Part shown: one piece after another, positions 24,035-63,604 of the stretch | Layout: every line of letters begins with the position of its first letter | Numbering within the stretch: position 1 is the first letter of the stretch | Assembly: GCA_030616605.1 (NCBI GenBank) | Contig: JAUWWY010000004.1 | Coordinates: 1,101-65,100 of the forward strand | Length of the DNA: 64,000 nucleotides | Direction: 5' to 3' | DNA from: a bacterium | Lineage (GTDB): Bacteria; Patescibacteriota; Minisyncoccia; Minisyncoccales; CG1-02-41-26 | The notes under the pieces: generated by a model | Databases searched by the model: none | Told to the model about the DNA's origin: nothing | Seen by the model: only the letters and a program-made list of their open reading frames with translations | Program-made: the position numbers and the translations under genes

Positions 24035-24537
24035 CTGTTATGGCAATAAATAAAAGGCAAAATTCAAAAGGAGTAAGTTTGCTTGGACTTTTAATAGTTG
24101 TTGCCATTATTACGACTGGCTTGGTTTATCTTTTAGGAATATTTAGTTTTTCCATAAGGATTGCTGGGTCAGAAAAACAGCTCAGCCAAGCAAATTTTAT
24201 AGCTCAGGAAGCTATGGAGGGAGTGAGAAATTTCAGGGATGGAACAAATTGGCAAGAAGATGGATTGGGAACATTGATTACCTCCATCAGCTATCATTTA
24301 GAAAAAACAGGTATTCCCTTAGAATGGATTCTTTTCCCTGAGGAAAAAACAACAAATGGTTTTAAACAAATAATTATTTTTGATGATGCTAGACGTAATC
24401 TAAATGATGATATTGTGGAGAATGGAGGAGAGATTGATTCCAATACCAAAAAGGTAACTGTTTCTGTATCTTGGACTGAGAGAGGAAAACCTTATCAAAT
24501 AGAGTTGATCACTTTTTTAACTAATTGGCAAGAATGA
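24031..24537 (+). CDS. pilin-like protein (degenerate class III signal)
   Basis: 'NSKG|VSLLGLLIVVAIITTGL' lacks Glu+5. Operon position supports the call. ATG at 24040 is a possible start. Confidence 0.55.
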   Translation: MTVMAINKRQNSKGVSLLGLLIVVAIITTGLVYLLGIFSFSIRIAGSEKQLSQANFIAQEAMEGVRNFRDGTNWQEDGLGTLITSISYHLEKTGIPLEWILFPEEKTTNGFKQIIIFDDARRNLNDDIVENGGEIDSNTKKVTVSVSWTERGKPYQIELITFLTNWQE

Positions 24538-56257: not shown

Positions 56258-56329
56258 TCCGGTGTGGCGCAATGGTAGCGCGGAGGCCTGTTAAGCCTTA
56301 GGTTGTAGGTTCGAGTCCTACCACCGGAG
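56258..56329 (+). tRNA. tRNA-Asn (anticodon GTT)
   Basis: Acceptor TCCGGTG/CACCGGA, anticodon arm GAGGC-CTGTTAA-GCCTT, T arm GTAGG-TTCGAGT-CCTAC. Confidence 0.85.
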
Positions 56330-57802
56330 CAGTGTAGAACACTTGTTTACTTGAAGCACCGTGTCAAACGGTGTTTTTAGTTCAAACAAGAGCTTTTTGC
56401 CCTGTAATTTGAGGTTCTGAAGTAGAAAATTCAGTAATTGCCTTTTTTCTGATATTTCAGAACTCTGAAAGATTTCATAAGCCTTTTGAGCCAGTTTTAG
56501 CACTGTATTTGCCGTTAAATAGAACTTTTCATCGGCTTGAGTGTATCTTTCTATTTTTTCATTTATTTCTTCTTGTTTTTCTTTGTATTCTTTTAGCTTT
56601 TTATTGAACATACTCGTAGTAATACAACCATCGGTTGCCATATCAAAAGCTTTGTCTATCCTCTTTTGGGTTTTATCGTATTCCTGCCTCAACACTCTTA
56701 AAGATTGCTCGTGGAAGCGATTTTTTGCCTCATGGGTGCGTTTTAAATCCTCTGTTATCATTTGTATCTTATTATCTGGCAATTTGATATTTTTCAAAAC
56801 ATCATAAATTGGCTTCATTAAATCTTCTTCTCTGATATAAGTTCTCTTTTTGTGATAGCCCCTGTAATTGGTGCAACTGTAATAAATATGCCCTCTTGCG
56901 GTCTCTGGCGTAATTGTGCAACCACAATCAGCACATTTTATCATTCCTCGTAATACAAACGGCTTAGAGGCGTATTTGAAGGGCTTTTTGTGGTATCCAA
57001 GCATAACTTCTTGGCATTTATCAAATAATGCTTTTGGGATAAGTGGTTGGTATTTATGAGGATATAATTCGCCTTTAATTCTCATCATTCCGTAATAAAA
57101 TGGATTTTTTAAGATGTTGTATATCATACTTTTAGTTAATGCTTTGTCGGGATTAGCAGTGCCTTTTAATCCTAATTTTTCCATTCCGTCTTTGATAAAC
57201 AAAAGCGAGCAGTTGCTTGTAGCATACATTTCAAATATTTTTACTATAAAATGAGCCCGTGCTGGGTCTGGAGTTATATCCTTATTTTCATTATCATCTT
57301 TTATGTTTGTATATCCTATGGGAGCTTTGCCAATCCATTCGCCTTTTTTGATTTTGTTTTCGTAAGCTCTTTTAACATTGTCGCTGATTGCGTCAGAGTA
57401 ATACTTTGCCAATCCTAAATTTATACCAAAGTGGAATTTTTCTGTTGCTGATATATCGGGCGTAATAATAAGATTGTCTGAAGCAAAATGAAGTTCTATT
57501 TTATCTTTCATTGCTAATTCATATAAAGAGGATACCCGTTTGTCAAAAACATTGCGAGAAAATCTATCTACCTTATCAAAACATACAACGATTTTTTCTT
57601 TAGCAGATTTTATGTATTCTAACGCCCTGTCAAAATCGTCTCTCTTTGTTTTATAAGCACTTTCATCAAAGCTGAAAACCTTAGCAATTTCAAAGCCCTT
57701 GCGTTTGCAGTAGCTTTTAAGCCGTTCAATTTGAGCTGGCAATGAATTGCCCGCTTCTTTTTGTTCTTCAGTTGAAACTCTTGCGAGTATTATTGCTTTC
57801 AT
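56318..57802 (-). CDS. large serine recombinase (integrase)
   Basis: Resolvase catalytic domain 'AIILARVSTEEQ', recombinase domain, zinc ribbon 'CADCGCTITPETARGHIYYSCTNY', C-terminal coiled coil. Confidence 0.9.
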   Translation of the reverse strand: MKAIILARVSTEEQKEAGNSLPAQIERLKSYCKRKGFEIAKVFSFDESAYKTKRDDFDRALEYIKSAKEKIVVCFDKVDRFSRNVFDKRVSSLYELAMKDKIELHFASDNLIITPDISATEKFHFGINLGLAKYYSDAISDNVKRAYENKIKKGEWIGKAPIGYTNIKDDNENKDITPDPARAHFIVKIFEMYATSNCSLLFIKDGMEKLGLKGTANPDKALTKSMIYNILKNPFYYGMMRIKGELYPHKYQPLIPKALFDKCQEVMLGYHKKPFKYASKPFVLRGMIKCADCGCTITPETARGHIYYSCTNYRGYHKKRTYIREEDLMKPIYDVLKNIKLPDNKIQMITEDLKRTHEAKNRFHEQSLRVLRQEYDKTQKRIDKAFDMATDGCITTSMFNKKLKEYKEKQEEINEKIERYTQADEKFYLTANTVLKLAQKAYEIFQSSEISEKRQLLNFLLQNLKLQGKKLLFELKTPFDTVLQVNKCSTLLRW

Positions 57803-58460: not shown

Positions 58461-58685
58461 TTATACTTTACAATAGTTTACAAGGCAAGTGAATAACTTT
58501 TTATCTTTTATCATTTTTAATATTTCTTCTATCTGCCTACTAATGCGTTGGGATAGTGTTTCCCCATATAATTTCATTAAGATTTCATCTATTTCTTTTA
58601 ATACATCTCTTTTTGGTTCAGTTAATTTTGGCTTAGTTGGTTTAGTTATATTTTTCATTAAGTTTTGTAATTTTATATGGCTCAA
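58461..58685 (-). CDS. hypothetical small protein
   Basis: ORF only. Overlaps the end of the upstream gene. Confidence 0.3.
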   Translation of the reverse strand: MSHIKLQNLMKNITKPTKPKLTEPKRDVLKEIDEILMKLYGETLSQRISRQIEEILKMIKDKKLFTCLVNYCKV

Positions 58686-59757
58686 ACGAATCTAACGACC
58701 TTTGAATATCTTTTATAAACCCGTGTGCTGGTTGAGTAAAAATTTCGTCCTCAAATTTTCTTAAATAATTCCTTAATGGTGTCCAGTTTTTTGAATTAGT
58801 GATAGTCCTAAGTCCTCTTATTCCTTCGTCATCTTTGCATAAGGTCATTAAGCCCGCTAAAAGCACTGCTGTTTTTGGTTTCGTGTTTGGGTATTTTCTA
58901 AAAATTAACTGCAATAATTTTTGTGGGTTGTTTTTTACGCAGAATAAAAATTTATCTTTTTGAAAAAATTTGCCCCAATAGAGGTTAAGCACTTTCTGGC
59001 AAATATCCTTTTTGAATATGTTTTTAAAAATGGGTTCTTCTAAAAAACCAATTTCCGCTAAGATTTCTTTCATTTTTGCCCTATGGCTTAATCTGGCTTC
59101 CATTTTTAAAACTTCAATTTTCTCTCGTTGTTTTTTAATCTGGTCAAAGATTGAAAATTGTTGTTTTGTTTGGTTTTTGTCTATTGCCCTATTTGCTGGC
59201 TTATTTAAGTCCCTAATTTTATCGTAAAAAACTAATGCGTGCCTATTGCTGTAAAATTGTAAGGATTCGCCATTGTTCCTATAATCTTTTCTTTCTAAAT
59301 CAAGTTTTAAATTCAGGTTTATTTTGCCAAGCTCTCTTATAGCAAATATGGCTGTGTATCCCTGAGTTAGCAGAATATTCTTTGAAGCGTGGAAGCTTGA
59401 AACTTTTGCTCCCTCAATATGGATTTTCCAAACTTTCACTCCCATTTCTTCTAATCTTTTTTGCAGAATTTCTACCACTTCATCAAAATCAGTTTCTACC
59501 ACTTCATCTAAATTGTTATTAAATTTCAGCTTTGGAACTGAAAACTCTGCTTTTAACTCGCCAGATTTACCTCGCTTTATAATTGTCAATTTCGGCTGGT
59601 ATATACCTCTCTCTTTGGCTTCTTTTGAGGGATTATTAACATATTTGCAAAACACTGCTTTATTTTCTTGTATTCCTATTGCTGGGGGAGTAAATTTGTG
59701 CGGGTCTGTTATCCAGCAACGGCTTATTGGTATTATTAAAATTACTGTATCAATCAT
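58642..59757 (-). CDS. putative replication-initiation protein (gene II/X or Rep_trans-like)
   Basis: 'MIDTVILIIP' start and 'ALVFYDKIRDL' (a Y-D-K motif) recall rolling-circle initiators. Weak, memory-based similarity. Confidence 0.4.
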   Translation of the reverse strand: MIDTVILIIPISRCWITDPHKFTPPAIGIQENKAVFCKYVNNPSKEAKERGIYQPKLTIIKRGKSGELKAEFSVPKLKFNNNLDEVVETDFDEVVEILQKRLEEMGVKVWKIHIEGAKVSSFHASKNILLTQGYTAIFAIRELGKINLNLKLDLERKDYRNNGESLQFYSNRHALVFYDKIRDLNKPANRAIDKNQTKQQFSIFDQIKKQREKIEVLKMEARLSHRAKMKEILAEIGFLEEPIFKNIFKKDICQKVLNLYWGKFFQKDKFLFCVKNNPQKLLQLIFRKYPNTKPKTAVLLAGLMTLCKDDEGIRGLRTITNSKNWTPLRNYLRKFEDEIFTQPAHGFIKDIQRSLDSFEPYKITKLNEKYN

Positions 59758-59782
59758 TGCATTACTTCTTTTAAATTGTCAG

Positions 59783-60055
59783 CTATTGACTTAAGATTTT
59801 TTCGGCTTTTGAAATTATTGCTACTTCAATTGCTTTGCTGGCTGTTTTGTTAATTGGGTGATAAATGTGTATATTCTTATCACCGATTTTCTTTGTGGGG
59901 TAGGTTAATCGGTATCCTGCCCCCTCTAACTTTTTATGAATGCCGATAGAACCCAGATAAAAATTATCGTCTAAAACACAACTGGCAAAAGCTACCAAAC
60001 CATTATTTGGTTTTATCGGAATTATTTGAACTTCTGTTATTTTCATAATTTTCAT
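59783..60055 (-). CDS. spoVG: SpoVG family protein
   Basis: 'MKITEVQIIPIKPNNGLVAFASCVLDDNFYLGSIGIHKKL.......YPTKK.......IYHPINKTASKAIEVAI' follows the SpoVG pattern. ATG at 60046 is a possible start. Confidence 0.75.
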   Translation of the reverse strand: MKIMKITEVQIIPIKPNNGLVAFASCVLDDNFYLGSIGIHKKLEGAGYRLTYPTKKIGDKNIHIYHPINKTASKAIEVAIISKAEKILSQ

Positions 60056-60212
60056 TAAATTGCTTTTTATAAAATTCAGGATTATTTCTTTTATCTATTT
60101 GTAGAAGTAAATTAAAAAATCCTAACAAGTTTTGCCTTACTTCAAAATCAGAGTGTTTAGTTAAATCATTGTTTGTCATTTTTCTATTTTCTTTTTGTTC
60201 CTTTTCAGACAT
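60003..60212 (-). CDS. hypothetical small protein
   Basis: ORF only. Overlaps the spoVG start. Confidence 0.3.
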   Translation of the reverse strand: MSEKEQKENRKMTNNDLTKHSDFEVRQNLLGFFNLLLQIDKRNNPEFYKKQFNENYENNRSSNNSDKTK

Positions 60213-60223
60213 ATCAGTAGAAA

Positions 60224-60253
60224 TAAAAAAACCATACTTTTTACTAAGTATGG
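60224..60253 (-). terminator. rho-independent terminator after the 617-aa gene
   Basis: On the minus strand, CCATAC ttagtaaaaa GTATGG followed by TTTTTTTT. Confidence 0.6.
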
Positions 60254-60294
60254 GTCTTTCACAGAATCGTGTTTGAATTTCGGACTAAATAGGA

Positions 60295-62148
60295 CTATTT
60301 TGGACTATTTTTTAAATGTGCTAATTCTAATTCTTTAATAAATAATGGTATTTTAATACCTGCTTTTTCTAAATCCGTTTTAGTAATCTTATCTCCTTTA
60401 TAAACTACTATGCTTTTACTTCTTTTTGGGAAGAATGCTTTTAATATTTCGCCCTTAAATCCAAGTTCGTTAAGTATCTTTATAAAACCCTTCTTTTTTA
60501 CTTCTTCTTTAAGCGACAAATTACCAGACGCCGAAGGCAATTTCTTTCTTTCTATTTTTATATTTGGTGATTGAGAGCGTATATATTCAAAGAATTCATA
60601 ATTACTCCCAAGAGCGTGCGGTTTTGATAGAAGATAATTATTTACCCAAATTTCTCTGTCTTTTACTTGTATTTCAAAAGTTTTTGGTATGGCTACCCCT
60701 TTTTTAATGTCGCTTTCCAATTTATCTAATAATTGCTCTACATCTAAAGCTTGCTTACTAATTCCTGCTACTTTTTCTTGTTTTTCTGACTTCTTAATTT
60801 TTAATTCTGGTATTTTTGTAATTTCAATTCTTGTAGCTGGCAGTTCTTGATTTTTTTCCTTCTTTGCTAAATGTTGCTCGCTATATTGCCTGATTTTTGC
60901 AAAAAATGCTGAATTGTCTTTTTTTATTTTTTCAACATTATTTTTCTCTGGTAGTGAACATTCTGTTATCTCCCCCAGAAAATCGTAAAGATTTACGAAT
61001 AAACTATCAACAGTTAATCCTTGCCTTTGTATTTCAAACTCACAGCCAATTATATTTCTGAAAGGTTTTTTATATGTATTTTTTAAATTACCACATCCAC
61101 CATTTAGTGTTTCTTCTATGTTTTTTATAATTTCAAAGTAGATACTATTTATCTCGTCATTTTGGTTGTCTTTATTAGCAAAATAAAACTTTGTTAACCT
61201 TATCAATTCATTCCAATAAAGATATAGTTTATCTATTTTTTGGGGCAAAATCATATAAACAGGAGTTTCAATTGTATTTCCATCTTTATCATAATAAATA
61301 GGAATACCACTCGGGTCTTCTACCATTTTCCAAAGAAGACCGTTCTCAATAAAGAAATTATCATATTCAAGAAAACTATTAAATTTATCAGCAGTTTCTT
61401 TAGCAAGATTTTTATCCCCGCCATACATTAAAGGATGGCACGCCCCTTCAATAATTTTAAATAGTATTTTTCTGTCTTCTTTATTTTGCAACGAAGCAAG
61501 TGTTAATAAAACAGAATAAACCATTCGCCATTTTGTGTTTGGATATTCAATAAGTTCTCGTTTAACCCCACAATTAGTAAGAAATTCTACCAGATTTGAA
61601 CCGCTATCCAAATCACCAATTTCTTTGGCAATGAGCTCCAGAGTCTTTGGTTTTATAATTGTCTGTAAGTTTTTAGTTTCTGGGACAGCTTTTTTATTCT
61701 CCGAGTAGCTACTGCCACTTTCATATAACCGATAAAGTTCATCAAATTTCGGTTGTAGAATTTTTAAATAGAAAATTTCCCAAAAAGAAATGTCGCCGAA
61801 TGTTTCATCTCTTTCTATTTCTCGGATTTCTATTGCTCCCCATTCATCTAACTTTTTTATAATTGCTTCTTCGCTGTCAGGAGAGATGGGCAAATTGGAA
61901 CTTCCATAATATCCAATAGAATATTCAATAAGTTTCTTTTTTGTTGTATACAGTTGCTTTTCTTTAATCTGTCTTAAAACAACCCTAACATCTTTTCTAA
62001 ATTTTTCTTCTGGTGTTAAATTCATTACATTTTTCATTACTTTTTTTAAGATTTTATTACAATTTTTATTCTTATTTTCTCTATTTTGCCACATTTTAGC
62101 CACTTTTTCAAGCATTATCCAAAATGTCAGGTATAATTCTGCTTTCAA
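60295..62148 (-). CDS. 617-aa orphan protein of unknown function
   Basis: Long uninterrupted ORF in host-like composition. I see no Walker A, HxH, DEAD or other recognisable motif. The start may be one of several downstream ATGs. Confidence 0.6.
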   Translation of the reverse strand: MKAELYLTFWIMLEKVAKMWQNRENKNKNCNKILKKVMKNVMNLTPEEKFRKDVRVVLRQIKEKQLYTTKKKLIEYSIGYYGSSNLPISPDSEEAIIKKLDEWGAIEIREIERDETFGDISFWEIFYLKILQPKFDELYRLYESGSSYSENKKAVPETKNLQTIIKPKTLELIAKEIGDLDSGSNLVEFLTNCGVKRELIEYPNTKWRMVYSVLLTLASLQNKEDRKILFKIIEGACHPLMYGGDKNLAKETADKFNSFLEYDNFFIENGLLWKMVEDPSGIPIYYDKDGNTIETPVYMILPQKIDKLYLYWNELIRLTKFYFANKDNQNDEINSIYFEIIKNIEETLNGGCGNLKNTYKKPFRNIIGCEFEIQRQGLTVDSLFVNLYDFLGEITECSLPEKNNVEKIKKDNSAFFAKIRQYSEQHLAKKEKNQELPATRIEITKIPELKIKKSEKQEKVAGISKQALDVEQLLDKLESDIKKGVAIPKTFEIQVKDREIWVNNYLLSKPHALGSNYEFFEYIRSQSPNIKIERKKLPSASGNLSLKEEVKKKGFIKILNELGFKGEILKAFFPKRSKSIVVYKGDKITKTDLEKAGIKIPLFIKELELAHLKNSPK

Positions 62149-62231
62149 TTTTTATAAACTTATGTTATTCTTGAATTGTAAAAATTAAATATCAAATTGC
62201 CTAAGTCCTAATAGGATATGGTATAAAAAAT

Positions 62232-62370
62232 CCCATCCCTGATACTAAGCTCCTCGTCAGAGCACTCAGGGATGGGTCTTAGCCGAAAGGCTATGGGTGG
62301 TGAAAGCCATCGCTGGCGGGGAGCTTTGTGTTCCAAGCCAGCAAGTATAGAAATTAAAACCCATCCCTGA
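62232..62370 (+). ncRNA. G+C-rich structured leader / candidate cis-regulatory RNA upstream of the methyltransferase
   Basis: CCCATCCCTGA at 62232-62242, its exact reverse complement TCAGGGATGGG at 62266-62276, and a third direct copy at 62360-62370 ending 1 nt before the ATG. GAAA-tetraloop hairpin TAGCC-GAAA-GGCTA (62280-62293). GCTGGC...GCCAGC hairpin (62312-62342). Extended -10 TGGTATAAA at about 62218-62226. Confidence 0.45.
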
Positions 62371-62371
62371 T

Positions 62372-63604
62372 ATGCCCAATCAAAAAAAACTTTGGAAAAC
62401 CAATAAACTTATCTGTGGTGATAATTTAGAGGAAGTAGCTAAACTTTCTAAAGAGAGTGTAGATTTAATCTACATTGACCCACCGTTCTTCAGTCATAAA
62501 CAGTATGAGGTAGTCTTTGGCGACGAGGCGGAAGTTAGAAGTTTTAAAGATAGATGGGAAGGCGGAGTAGAACACTACATAAGTTGGTTAAGACCGAGAG
62601 TTCAAGCGATGTATGAAGTATTGAAGCCTACGGGCTCTTTTTATATACATTGCGATTGGCACGCTAACGCTCATATAAGAATTATGTTAGATGAAATTTT
62701 TGGAGGAGAGAATTTTAGAAATGAGATAGTTTGGTGTTATGAGAGGGCTCATCCCGCCTATAAGATGTTTAAGCGATTGCACGATACCATTTTTTTCTAT
62801 TCAAAATCTGATACGTGGATTTTCAATATGCCTCGTGTGCCCTTTAAAGATGGTTCTTGGCAAAGAAAAAGCTTTAAAAGACCAGATGGGAAGATATGGG
62901 AGCAGAAGCTAAAAGGGAAGGCTTGTCCTGATTGGTGGATAGATATTCCATCTTTTGCAACCCGAATGTCTGCAAAAGAACGAACTGGCTATCCTACCCA
63001 AAAACCAGAGAAACTTTTAGAGAGAATTATAAAAGCGTCCTCAAACAAAGGCGATTTAGTGGCTGATTTCTTTTGTGGTTGTGGGACAACTATAGCAGTG
63101 GCTCAACAGTTAGAGAGGAAGTGGATAGGTATAGATATCTCACCAACAGCAATTAAAGTGATACAGAGACGATTGAAGGAGTTTGAAGGAGTGATAGAAG
63201 GCGTTAATTATATAGTTGTTGGTATGCCGACCACTGTAAAAGATGTGAGAAAATTAGAGCCATTTGAATTCCAGAACTGGGTAGTAATAGATAAAATGAG
63301 AGCTACCGCAAGTAGAAAGAAAGTTGGAGATATGGGATTGGATGGTTATTATCCAAAAGGTCATCTTTTTGTTCACGGGGGAGCAGGTATACAAGTAAAA
63401 CAATCTGATAAGGTCGGGCGTAATGTTGTAGATAATTTTGAGACCGCACTTAAAAGAGCGGATTATAAAAAAGGTTATATCGTAGCTTTTAGTTTTACTA
63501 CAGGTGCTTATGAGGAAGTAGCACGGATTAAGAATAAAGGAGAATTAGAGATAAAATTAATCACAGTTGAGGAATTACTAACAAAAAAGAAACCAATTGT
63601 TTAG
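62372..63604 (+). CDS. beta-class N6A/N4C DNA methyltransferase fused to a C-terminal Mrr-like restriction-endonuclease domain
   Basis: Motif IV 'LIYIDPPFF' precedes motif I 'VADFFCGCGTT' (beta permutation). The C-terminal ~130 aa 'FEFQNWV....GDMGLDGY.....GIQVKQSDKVGRNVVDNF......YKKGYIVAFSFTTGA' resemble Mrr_cat (D...QxK). Confidence 0.8.
   Translation: MPNQKKLWKTNKLICGDNLEEVAKLSKESVDLIYIDPPFFSHKQYEVVFGDEAEVRSFKDRWEGGVEHYISWLRPRVQAMYEVLKPTGSFYIHCDWHANAHIRIMLDEIFGGENFRNEIVWCYERAHPAYKMFKRLHDTIFFYSKSDTWIFNMPRVPFKDGSWQRKSFKRPDGKIWEQKLKGKACPDWWIDIPSFATRMSAKERTGYPTQKPEKLLERIIKASSNKGDLVADFFCGCGTTIAVAQQLERKWIGIDISPTAIKVIQRRLKEFEGVIEGVNYIVVGMPTTVKDVRKLEPFEFQNWVVIDKMRATASRKKVGDMGLDGYYPKGHLFVHGGAGIQVKQSDKVGRNVVDNFETALKRADYKKGYIVAFSFTTGAYEEVARIKNKGELEIKLITVEELLTKKKPIV

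Follow-up and report, generated by a model that had tools for sequence, protein, structure and literature searches.

What is the G+C-rich, self-complementary sequence that stands directly ahead of a DNA methyltransferase gene in a patescibacterial genome, and does it control that gene? The sequence lies near the right end of a 64,000-nucleotide (nt) stretch of contig JAUWWY010000004.1 (assembly GCA_030616605.1, positions 1,101 to 65,100), which was analysed at its full length and is called the window here; all coordinates are window positions. The gene that follows (62372-63604, + strand) encodes a 410-amino-acid fusion of an N6/N4 DNA methyltransferase (PF01555, 1e-53) and an Mrr-type restriction endonuclease domain (PF04471, 1.5e-07). 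We find that the sequence is a member of the catalogued LOOT RNA family (62198-62311), that it occupies a leader position, and that its strand 62266-62276 is shared by two mutually exclusive, co-varying and nearly isoenergetic helices. On balance, we think that this LOOT leader probably acts on the methyltransferase-Mrr gene as a bistable switch of translation.

The locus drew attention through a repeat triplet. The 11-mer CCCATCCCTGA is found at 62232-62242 (+), here called copy 1, and in identical form at 62360-62370 (+), copy 3. The antisense segment between them, at 62266-62276, is the exact reverse complement, TCAGGGATGGG. T62371 is the sole base between copy 3 and the methyltransferase ATG (62372), and no Shine-Dalgarno sequence is visible before this ATG when the sequence is read directly. 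The start codon itself is confirmed by an N-terminus, MPNQxKLWKTNKL, that is conserved across 80 homologues. With at most one mismatch, the 11-mer has four matches in the 64 kb where 0.55 are expected, a number reached by none of 100 shuffles. If one mismatch is allowed, copies 1 and 3 form a direct repeat of 17 nt, AAA[T/A]CCCATCCCTGATA. Together with the 3' flank, the antisense segment (62266-62281) can pair with 62355-62370 across 16 nt at 94% complementarity. The LOOT RNA has 47% G+C, against roughly 27-37% locally in the window. Folding of 62195-62400 gives -74.6 kcal/mol (z = -5.75 against shuffles), and the minimum-energy fold contains the helix of the antisense segment with copy 3, not the local hairpin P2 that the antisense segment forms with copy 1. 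Elsewhere in the window, a one-mismatch copy of the 11-mer, TCCATCCCTGA, lies at 24233-24243 (-) inside a + strand open reading frame (ORF), which is consistent with chance (0.55 expected).

The identity of the RNA comes from an Rfam scan, which matches 62198-62311 (+) to LOOT (RF03000) over the full model, positions 1-121 of 121, with 69.4 bits (E = 1.4e-12) where the gathering score is 46.4 bits. It is the single LOOT match at the gathering threshold in the 64-kb window. LOOT is a motif from the screen of Weinberg et al. 2017 (PMC5737381; Rfam 14, PMC7779021), and Rfam types it as 'Gene; sRNA', based on metagenomes and with no function given. In the literature covered, LOOT is mentioned only in Rfam papers and in the CaCoFold paper, with strong covariation and no function, and the main text of the 2017 paper, whose supplement lay outside the search, does not describe it. 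We collected relatives with a pattern of the conserved positions of the Rfam consensus, using one genome per species. This gave at least 120 matches, with about 104 genuine LOOT among the matches listed, and all counts of LOOT loci below (85, 98, 99, 102 or 104) refer to the matches listed. The window LOOT was aligned with 101 other loci (alignment A1, 102 sequences).

All features of the family are present in the window: the outer and inner helices of P1, the outer helix of P2, P3 and P4 with GNRA loops, and the CCUAA, AUGG and AAAA motifs. P1 (62198-62223, +) has an outer helix UGCC/GGUA around the hairpin UCCU-AAU-AGGA, and its CCUAA is invariant or nearly so in the 102 loci. The junction AUGGUAUAAAAAAU (62218-62231, +; consensus AUGG...AAAA) holds the columns A23 T24 G25 G26 and A30-A33, which are invariant in A1. 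A mini-ORF starting from the AUG of this junction was considered and rejected by eye, because its stop codon is not conserved. P2 is built from copy 1, CCCAUCCCUGA (62232-62242, +), as its 5' strand, as seen in the Rfam alignment and in repeat and pattern searches, and from the antisense segment, UCAGGGAUGGG (62266-62276, +), as its 3' strand. Repeat search, covariation and folding all mark the latter as the switching strand, available to copy 1 or to copy 3. At the tip of P2 lies GCUCCUCGUCAG (62249-62260, +; inverted repeat I3), the 5' strand of a pseudoknot that may alternatively form a small local hairpin; the inner P2 helix of the Rfam model fits the window poorly, with four non-canonical pairs. 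Two GAAA-tetraloop hairpins follow. P3 (62278-62295, +), placed by the Rfam alignment and A1, has seven positions per arm with one U-U mismatch (8 base pairs (bp) in most family members), and P4 (62296-62311, +), GGUGGU-GAAA-GCCAUC in the Rfam alignment, is 98.2% paired in A1. Beyond the Rfam model are the 3' extension CUGGCGGGGAGC (62313-62324, +), the 3' pseudoknot strand recognised from A1 and its covariation, and directly after it the U-rich tract UUUGUGUU (62325-62332, +), in which T131, T132 and T134 are at least 90% conserved in A1. The last part is copy 3 with its 5' flank, UAAAACCCAUCCCUGA (62355-62370, +; inverted repeat I2, also recurrent in relatives), which is the translation-initiation region and ends 1 nt before the AUG. 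The original prediction for this locus, made from the sequence of the window, had described the three 11-mers in direct/inverted/direct order at exactly the positions that the repeat and pattern searches return, and it had correctly seen no Shine-Dalgarno sequence at the ATG. It named a GAAA hairpin, which is P3, and a GCTGGC/GCCAGC hairpin, and both are present; it overlooked P4, the second GAAA hairpin, and the 5' hairpin P1. The Rfam scan that it proposed brought out the full-length family membership that it had missed.

Is LOOT placed as a leader in general? Of 85 decisive loci, 83 have a downstream gene that shares the strand of the RNA, while the gene upstream is same-strand in 28 loci and opposite in 46. 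The ORF starts lie mostly 30-90 nt 3' of the RNA. Most genuine LOOT loci are in genomes labelled Patescibacteria or candidate phyla radiation (CPR). About a dozen genuine LOOT (L165, L169, L179, L184, L189, L204, L214, L216, L182, L186, L197 and L205) carry other labels, namely uncultured Gammaproteobacteria, Sediminibacterium, Desulfobacterota, Flavobacteriaceae or Pacearchaeota; these contigs could be mislabelled or misbinned Patescibacteria, or they could reflect a wider host range. In viral collections (IMG/VR and INPHARED, with 2.9 million viral contigs for the successful pattern), two loose patterns and the successful LOOT pattern gave chance matches only, and a BLAST search of phage genomes returned nothing meaningful.

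The evidence for two exclusive helices comes from homologues of the methyltransferase-Mrr gene, for which 80 loci from metagenomes were used. A LOOT leader precedes most of the closest homologues (about 63-82% identity) and none in the group with 55-60% identity. We compared 29 of these leaders, including those of the window, L206 and L259. They hold 12 different arm sequences, two of which are CCGUUCAGGG and CCCGCUACAGG, and about 25 of the 29 match in all three segments. For the alignment of these leaders (A4), the first C that follows the A-run was set as the start of copies 1 and 3, and the P2 partner of copy 1 was taken as the antisense segment, so that the anchors are independent of the alternative pairing. 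In this register, 95.2% of the P2 cells are paired and nine of the 10 pairs vary on both sides; covariation is 0.919 against 0.193 when shuffled (reached in 0 of 500; slid controls 24-41% paired). The helix of the antisense segment with copy 3 behaves in the same way: it is 89.0% paired, 9 of 10 pairs are changed on both sides, and the covariation is 0.778 against 0.191 (0 of 500; slid controls 23-46%). In L269, L287, L290 and L297, copy 1 differs from copy 3, yet both still pair with the antisense segment through G.U pairs or a transition. Since these differences are compatible with pairing, they favour RNA pairing over mere DNA identity.

Predicted energies place the two states close together. 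When P2 or the alternative helix was forced in 23 leaders, the difference ranged from -3.3 to +8.4 kcal/mol with a mean of +1.8, and the minimum-energy state was the alternative in 9 leaders and P2 in 14. For the window, the alternative state has -72.3 and the P2 state -70.3 kcal/mol. In this energy model, near-equal energies are the signature of a two-state element and not of one dominant fold. The alternative helix spans positions -17 to -2 of the start codon. The original prediction held that the central segment pairs either with copy 1 or with the initiation region, each excluding the other, and both helices prove to be kept by compensatory change. Covariation of the three segments in homologous elements, which it had offered as a check, was found, so that it is not refuted on this point, and the alternative-structure folding that it suggested gives two states of nearly equal predicted energy.

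The third copy also occurs beyond the methyltransferase genes. Among 99 distinct LOOT loci, 15 repeat the 5' strand of their own P2, with no more than one mismatch, 32-55 nt past the end of the Rfam model and 0-10 nt before an ATG. When the arms are permuted between loci, the mean is 0.95 and the maximum 4 in 500 trials, and an upstream control gives 1. When duplex energies of the start region with LOOT are compared, it is the 3' strand of P2 that stands out in these third-copy loci. A general rule by which every LOOT masks the downstream start was considered and rejected, as most start regions are A/U-rich and have no specific pairing with LOOT.

What, then, does the conserved core hold in all loci? 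Nearly all carry GCUGGCGGGGAGC-UUUnUGUUU directly 3' of P4, and this extension pairs with the tip region of P2 (62249-62260 with 62313-62324 in the window). As this helix crosses P2, it forms a pseudoknot. Over the 102 sequences of A1 its 12 pairs are 88.9% paired, 11 of the 12 are changed on both sides, and covariation is 0.485 against 0.244 when shuffled (0 of 500; slid controls 35-52% paired). One of the pairs, for example, is CG in 26 sequences, AU in 22, GC in 21 and UG in 19. At two positions the pseudoknot has conserved U.G wobbles (65 of 102 and 69 of 102 sequences), which would be A-C mismatches on the other strand; the pairing is therefore one of a single strand. A local hairpin at the P2 tip is weaker, with 81.7% paired and a covariation of 0.277 against 0.200. 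The extension can also form a local stem of at least 6 bp with downstream sequence in 56 of 98 loci, compared with 34% of shuffles. In the window, both sequence and folding give this stem as the hairpin GCUGGC...GCCAGC (62312-62342, +; 62312-62317 with 62337-62342), a rival of the pseudoknot for the 3' extension. It is the hairpin of the original prediction, which was right about its presence and missed the conserved pairing of its 5' arm with the P2 tip. Such local hairpins are competitors of the pseudoknot, and the 28 'cross-covariations' that CaCoFold reports in LOOT (PMC7657543) may reflect the competition between the two pairings. In A1, where pairs were mapped from the window sequence, P2 and P3 appear only 36% and 52% paired; because the P3 of the window is one pair shorter, these figures reflect alignment register and not structure, and P2 was re-measured on A4 with its register set by anchor rules.

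LOOT has a promoter-like region of its own. In the upstream alignment of 102 loci, a TATAAT-like box stands 25-35 nt before the RNA in most LOOT loci. The candidate leader promoter of the window (62143-62171, +) would consist of TTTCAA (62143-48), a 17-nt spacer, TG (62163-64) and TATTCT (62166-71), and its TATGTTATTCT recurs in position in the most similar loci, L153, L259, L197 and L209. A conserved motif outside the Rfam model, ACAAYTTAAT, lies 2-12 nt upstream of P1 in about 100 loci, where it may mark the transcript's 5' end or serve as a binding site for a protein. Its counterpart in the window, from the same upstream alignment, is the A-rich motif AAAAATTAAATA (62180-62191, +), a region that is probably the transcript start. 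Pairing of ACAAYTTAAT with the 3' U-rich tail was rejected by eye, as it shows no covariation. The extended -10 element that had been proposed earlier, TGGTATAAA at about 62218-62226, does not hold: it is the most conserved single-stranded junction of LOOT, AUGG..AAAA, invariant in 102 loci, and since it lies inside an RNA whose structure starts upstream at 62198, it is not a promoter. On the minus strand, two sigma-70-like sites at 62167-62203, TAGGCA-17-TACAAT and TTGATA-17-AAGAAT, extend over the 5' edge of LOOT and are directed towards a gene for a 617-amino-acid protein; the intergenic region may thus hold back-to-back promoters.

We hypothesize the following mechanism. A promoter of its own would drive LOOT with its extension (62198-62332), which would form the 5' leader of the methyltransferase-Mrr transcript. 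The gene would belong to a small mobile element, inserted beside tRNA-Asn by a large serine recombinase. In the ON state, 62266-76 would pair with copy 1 (62232-42), the native LOOT fold would be formed and the start region 62355-70 would be free. In the OFF state, 62266-76 would pair with copy 3, which would disrupt the LOOT fold and enclose the start region in a helix of 16 bp. The balance of the two folds would control translation, and copy 1, as predicted from this model, is likely to act as the anti-anti-start-site strand. Co-transcriptional folding would give an initial ON burst, and a factor (ligand, protein or RNA) that stabilises the native fold would turn the gene on. The invariant junctions, both GNRA hairpins and the pseudoknot are kept in the roughly 80% of LOOT that have no third copy, which means that the core must have a role of its own. 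The simplest reading is that a factor binds to the core, presumably the sensing domain, with the third strand as one means of coupling this event to translation. The make-up of the core, in which junction nucleotides are invariant while helices vary freely and the pseudoknot co-varies, speaks for this view.

Several points weigh against this switch. The third copy is found in only about 15-20% of LOOT loci, and start-site masking is therefore not the core function of LOOT. Since the region of copy 3 lacks a Shine-Dalgarno sequence, there is none to mask, and the pseudoknot does not enter the energy model. P2 is perfect and is transcribed first, so that exchange to the alternative state may be slow. 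A scan with the Escherichia coli consensus found no site on the + strand at the candidate promoter, which is weak by that consensus. The 90 proteins encoded downstream of LOOT have no Pfam family in more than four of them and include zinc ribbons, DNA methyltransferases and small membrane or secreted proteins; they share no common function or pathway, unlike the regulon of a classical metabolite riboswitch. Finally, some leaders of the methyltransferase homologues are mismatched and persist. L264 and the identical pair L266 and L268 have a P2 of type CCTTCGCAGG and a copy 3 of another type (CCGTTCAGGG or CCCGCTACAG), and in L267 the two arms of P2 do not belong to one type. The origin of L266 and L268 in separate samples speaks against an assembly error, and judging from their sequences L264 and L266-L268 are probably real recombinants inside the conserved LOOT core.

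The genes around the leader indicate the kind of element on which it travels. At the other side of the region, a large serine recombinase gene (57802 to 56318, -) abuts tRNA-Asn (56258-56330, +) with its 3' end, and this tRNA/recombinase integration end is 4.4 kb from the leader. No second copy of the tRNA-Asn 3' end that would mark the far end of the element was found in the window. The backbone between them (58642-62148, -) encodes the 617-amino-acid protein, a 69-amino-acid ORF, the nucleic-acid-binding SpoVG and a 371-amino-acid protein. The 617-amino-acid neighbour had been called Rep-like, a label that finds no support, as it has no Pfam, PHROG or NCBIfam match and nothing marks it as a replication protein. 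Homologues of this divergently oriented neighbour identify Patescibacteria as the lineage of the host. By tblastn with the window proteins, 41 of 104 LOOT loci have a large serine recombinase no more than 8 kb away, and the same search found none in about 14 chance-match loci of the same scan. The commonest layout (27 loci) is that of the window, with the recombinase upstream and divergent, and at least 24 of the 41 recombinase loci have a tRNA or transfer-messenger RNA (tmRNA) gene convergent just past the 3' end of the recombinase. From this shared layout, LOOT heads a rightward, cargo-side transcription unit of small tRNA-integrating elements, and by its sequence context it appears to mark a family of such elements in Patescibacteria. 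Four loci (L138-L141) have the same backbone (SpoVG, the 371-amino-acid protein, serine recombinase and tRNA) and no LOOT. At the LOOT position, L138 carries a type I restriction-modification system as cargo and L139-L141 carry a SocA_Panacea toxin-antitoxin module; LOOT thus travels with the cargo side and not with the backbone. In L259, the ORF after LOOT (L259:5767-5810, compared with window 62372-62413) shares the first 13 or so codons (MPNQNKLWKTNKL) and the copy-3 region with the methyltransferase gene and then continues as an unrelated, membrane-like protein. From this comparison, the LOOT leader and the first codons seem to move between genes as a unit.

The recombinase gene may be a second target. 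In L143 (+1347 from the LOOT start), L251 (+2600) and L253 (-1354), a copy of the P2 5' strand matching at 11-12 of 12 positions lies at the start or in the first 10 or so codons of the recombinase gene, on the LOOT strand and just before the conserved YARxS motif. The position of these copies suggests that LOOT could also gate recombinase translation. The count of 3 in 39 was equalled by at least one of 300 permutations, and address copies elsewhere in the 8-kb loci show no enrichment (6, against 2-7 in permutations). A wider view can be built from this, which we offer tentatively and regard as possible but doubtful: LOOT would be a regulatory RNA of tRNA-integrating serine-recombinase elements of Patescibacteria, with a sensing core and a re-programmable P2 'address' whose 3' strand masks matching start regions, usually that of the adjacent cargo gene and sometimes that of the recombinase (L143, L251, L253), giving each element a private on/off code for cargo expression and mobility.

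The same observations have been weighed for a stand-alone small RNA (sRNA) that ends at the U-rich tract and acts in trans as well as in cis, with the variable 3' strand of P2 as an element-specific 'address' of a c4-like immunity or feedback RNA, which would repress any start region that bears a matching sequence. The Rfam type, the conserved helix followed by a U-rich tail (62313-32), a stem sequence that varies from element to element and the recombinase-start copies of L143, L251 and L253, which lie 1.3-2.6 kb downstream of LOOT or upstream of it on the same strand, are all in keeping with such an RNA, and c4 is known to act on its own operon (PMC8198154). However, the address strand is held within a perfect helix of 10-12 bp, not in an exposed loop, and the co-orientation in 83 of 85 loci and the fixed spacing of 32-55 nt fit cis action. 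The recombinase-start count and the number of extra copies outside the proximal site are both reached in permutations, as given above. A terminator scan found no canonical terminator near the 3' end of LOOT, though the U-rich tract 62325-62332 resembles a terminator tail: the strands of the preceding helix (62249-60 and 62313-24) are about 52 nt apart with P3 and P4 between them, and are not the short-loop hairpin plus U-tract of an intrinsic terminator. We consider a free sRNA unlikely.

Still less probable, in our view, is a purely kinetic timer that senses nothing, in which P2 would form first, leave a short window for translation and then relax to the masked fold, thus limiting a potentially toxic methyltransferase-nuclease. 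The order of the segments along the transcript suits this, as do the slightly more stable alternative state of the window (-72.3 against -70.3 kcal/mol), an alternative helix that is 5 nt longer than P2 and offers a possible toehold, and the fact that the arrangement is very common ahead of methyltransferase genes. But the P2 state is the more stable one in 14 of 23 leaders, so relaxation to OFF is not general, and a timer leaves the junctions, the two GNRA hairpins and the pseudoknot unexplained in the roughly 80% of loci that have no third copy.

A DNA-level site, either for attachment or recombination by the serine recombinase or as a replication origin, as the original prediction had also allowed, or a by-product of recombination between LOOT copies with no RNA function, is highly improbable: a recombinase within 8 kb in 41 of 104 loci, the exchange inside LOOT seen in the hybrid leaders L264 and L266-L268 and the diverse genes after LOOT, loosely like a cassette platform, would suit it, but the one-strand U.G wobbles at two pseudoknot positions (65 and 69 of 102), the co-varying GNRA tetraloop hairpins and the wobble-compatible differences between copies 1 and 3 speak for RNA, copy 3 is tied to the ATG (0-10 nt) and not to an element boundary, L138-L141 have the same backbone genes and no LOOT, the window recombinase sits at tRNA-Asn 4.4 kb off, and the 617-amino-acid neighbour matches no known family in Pfam, PHROG or NCBIfam.

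We return to the proposed bistable leader and what it means for LOOT. The family is now placed: it is found mostly in Patescibacteria-labelled genomes, at the head of accessory-gene units on serine-recombinase elements, and it has a longer, pseudoknotted structure. The leader role, the 3' pseudoknot, the context of Patescibacteria and serine recombinases and the co-varying start-site strand are absent from the Rfam entry and from the papers covered, with the 2017 supplement lying outside the search. For a defined subset there is also a mechanistic handle, as the native LOOT fold would be coupled to exposure of the start codon by strand exchange, and twelve natural compensatory variants are available ahead of one gene family. 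LOOT, so far a catalogued orphan whose structure is well supported but to which the literature covered assigns no organism, function or mechanism, thus becomes open to direct experiment. Tools for regulated expression are lacking in Patescibacteria, a need that has been stated (PMC11665869), and if the switch is true, LOOT would be one of the first native gene-control elements for this phylum.

How does the leader compare with known systems? With LOOT as described in Rfam, it shares the whole model, i.e., P1, CCUAA, AUGG..AAAA, a variable P2 and the two GNRA hairpins. It differs in that about 100 genome loci place LOOT as a same-strand 5' leader, in contrast to the metagenome-based sRNA gene of Rfam, that a co-varying 3' extension and a pseudoknot lie beyond the 121-position model, and that a subset has a third strand that would mask the start site.

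Translational riboswitch platforms, such as the E. coli thiM thiamine pyrophosphate (TPP) riboswitch, work with anti-anti-start-site, anti-start-site and start-site strands. The leader has the same direct/inverted/direct segments with a shared middle strand and two states of similar stability. Like a riboswitch, LOOT has a structured 5'-leader domain with invariant junction nucleotides, and in 15-20% of the family an exclusive pairing makes use of a strand of the conserved domain. In contrast, the genes downstream of LOOT share no pathway, the masked region has no Shine-Dalgarno sequence, and the switching helix is not conserved but hypervariable: close homologues have 12 versions of it.

Restriction-modification genes on mobile elements are controlled by C proteins and antisense RNAs. 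Here too, the device stands directly upstream of a methyltransferase/nuclease gene on a mobile element, and no controller protein gene lies between 62148 and 62372. The difference is that LOOT is predicted to be a structured RNA acting in cis, and members of its family stand ahead of many unrelated genes as well.

In the immunity regions of phages P1 and P7, sequences that match the target are also found upstream of c4, and the pairing sequences set the specificity of P1 and P7. The c4 antisense RNA of the immI operon blocks translation of genes of the same operon at their ribosome-binding region (Citron and Schuster 1990, summarised in PMC8198154). Both c4 and LOOT are structured RNAs of mobile elements that lie upstream of, and in an operon with, their target genes, and in both the target covers the initiation region of the downstream gene and co-varies with the RNA. 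The two differ in that c4 pairs through exposed loops, in trans and after processing, whereas the LOOT strand lies inside a perfect 11-bp stem and would pair with a site of the same RNA, 83 nt further downstream. Rfam scans of the window gave no C4 match, and LOOT has no likeness to c4 in sequence or structure. The resemblance is thus one of arrangement, and by this analogy the c4 RNA of P1 is the closest counterpart of LOOT on a mobile element.

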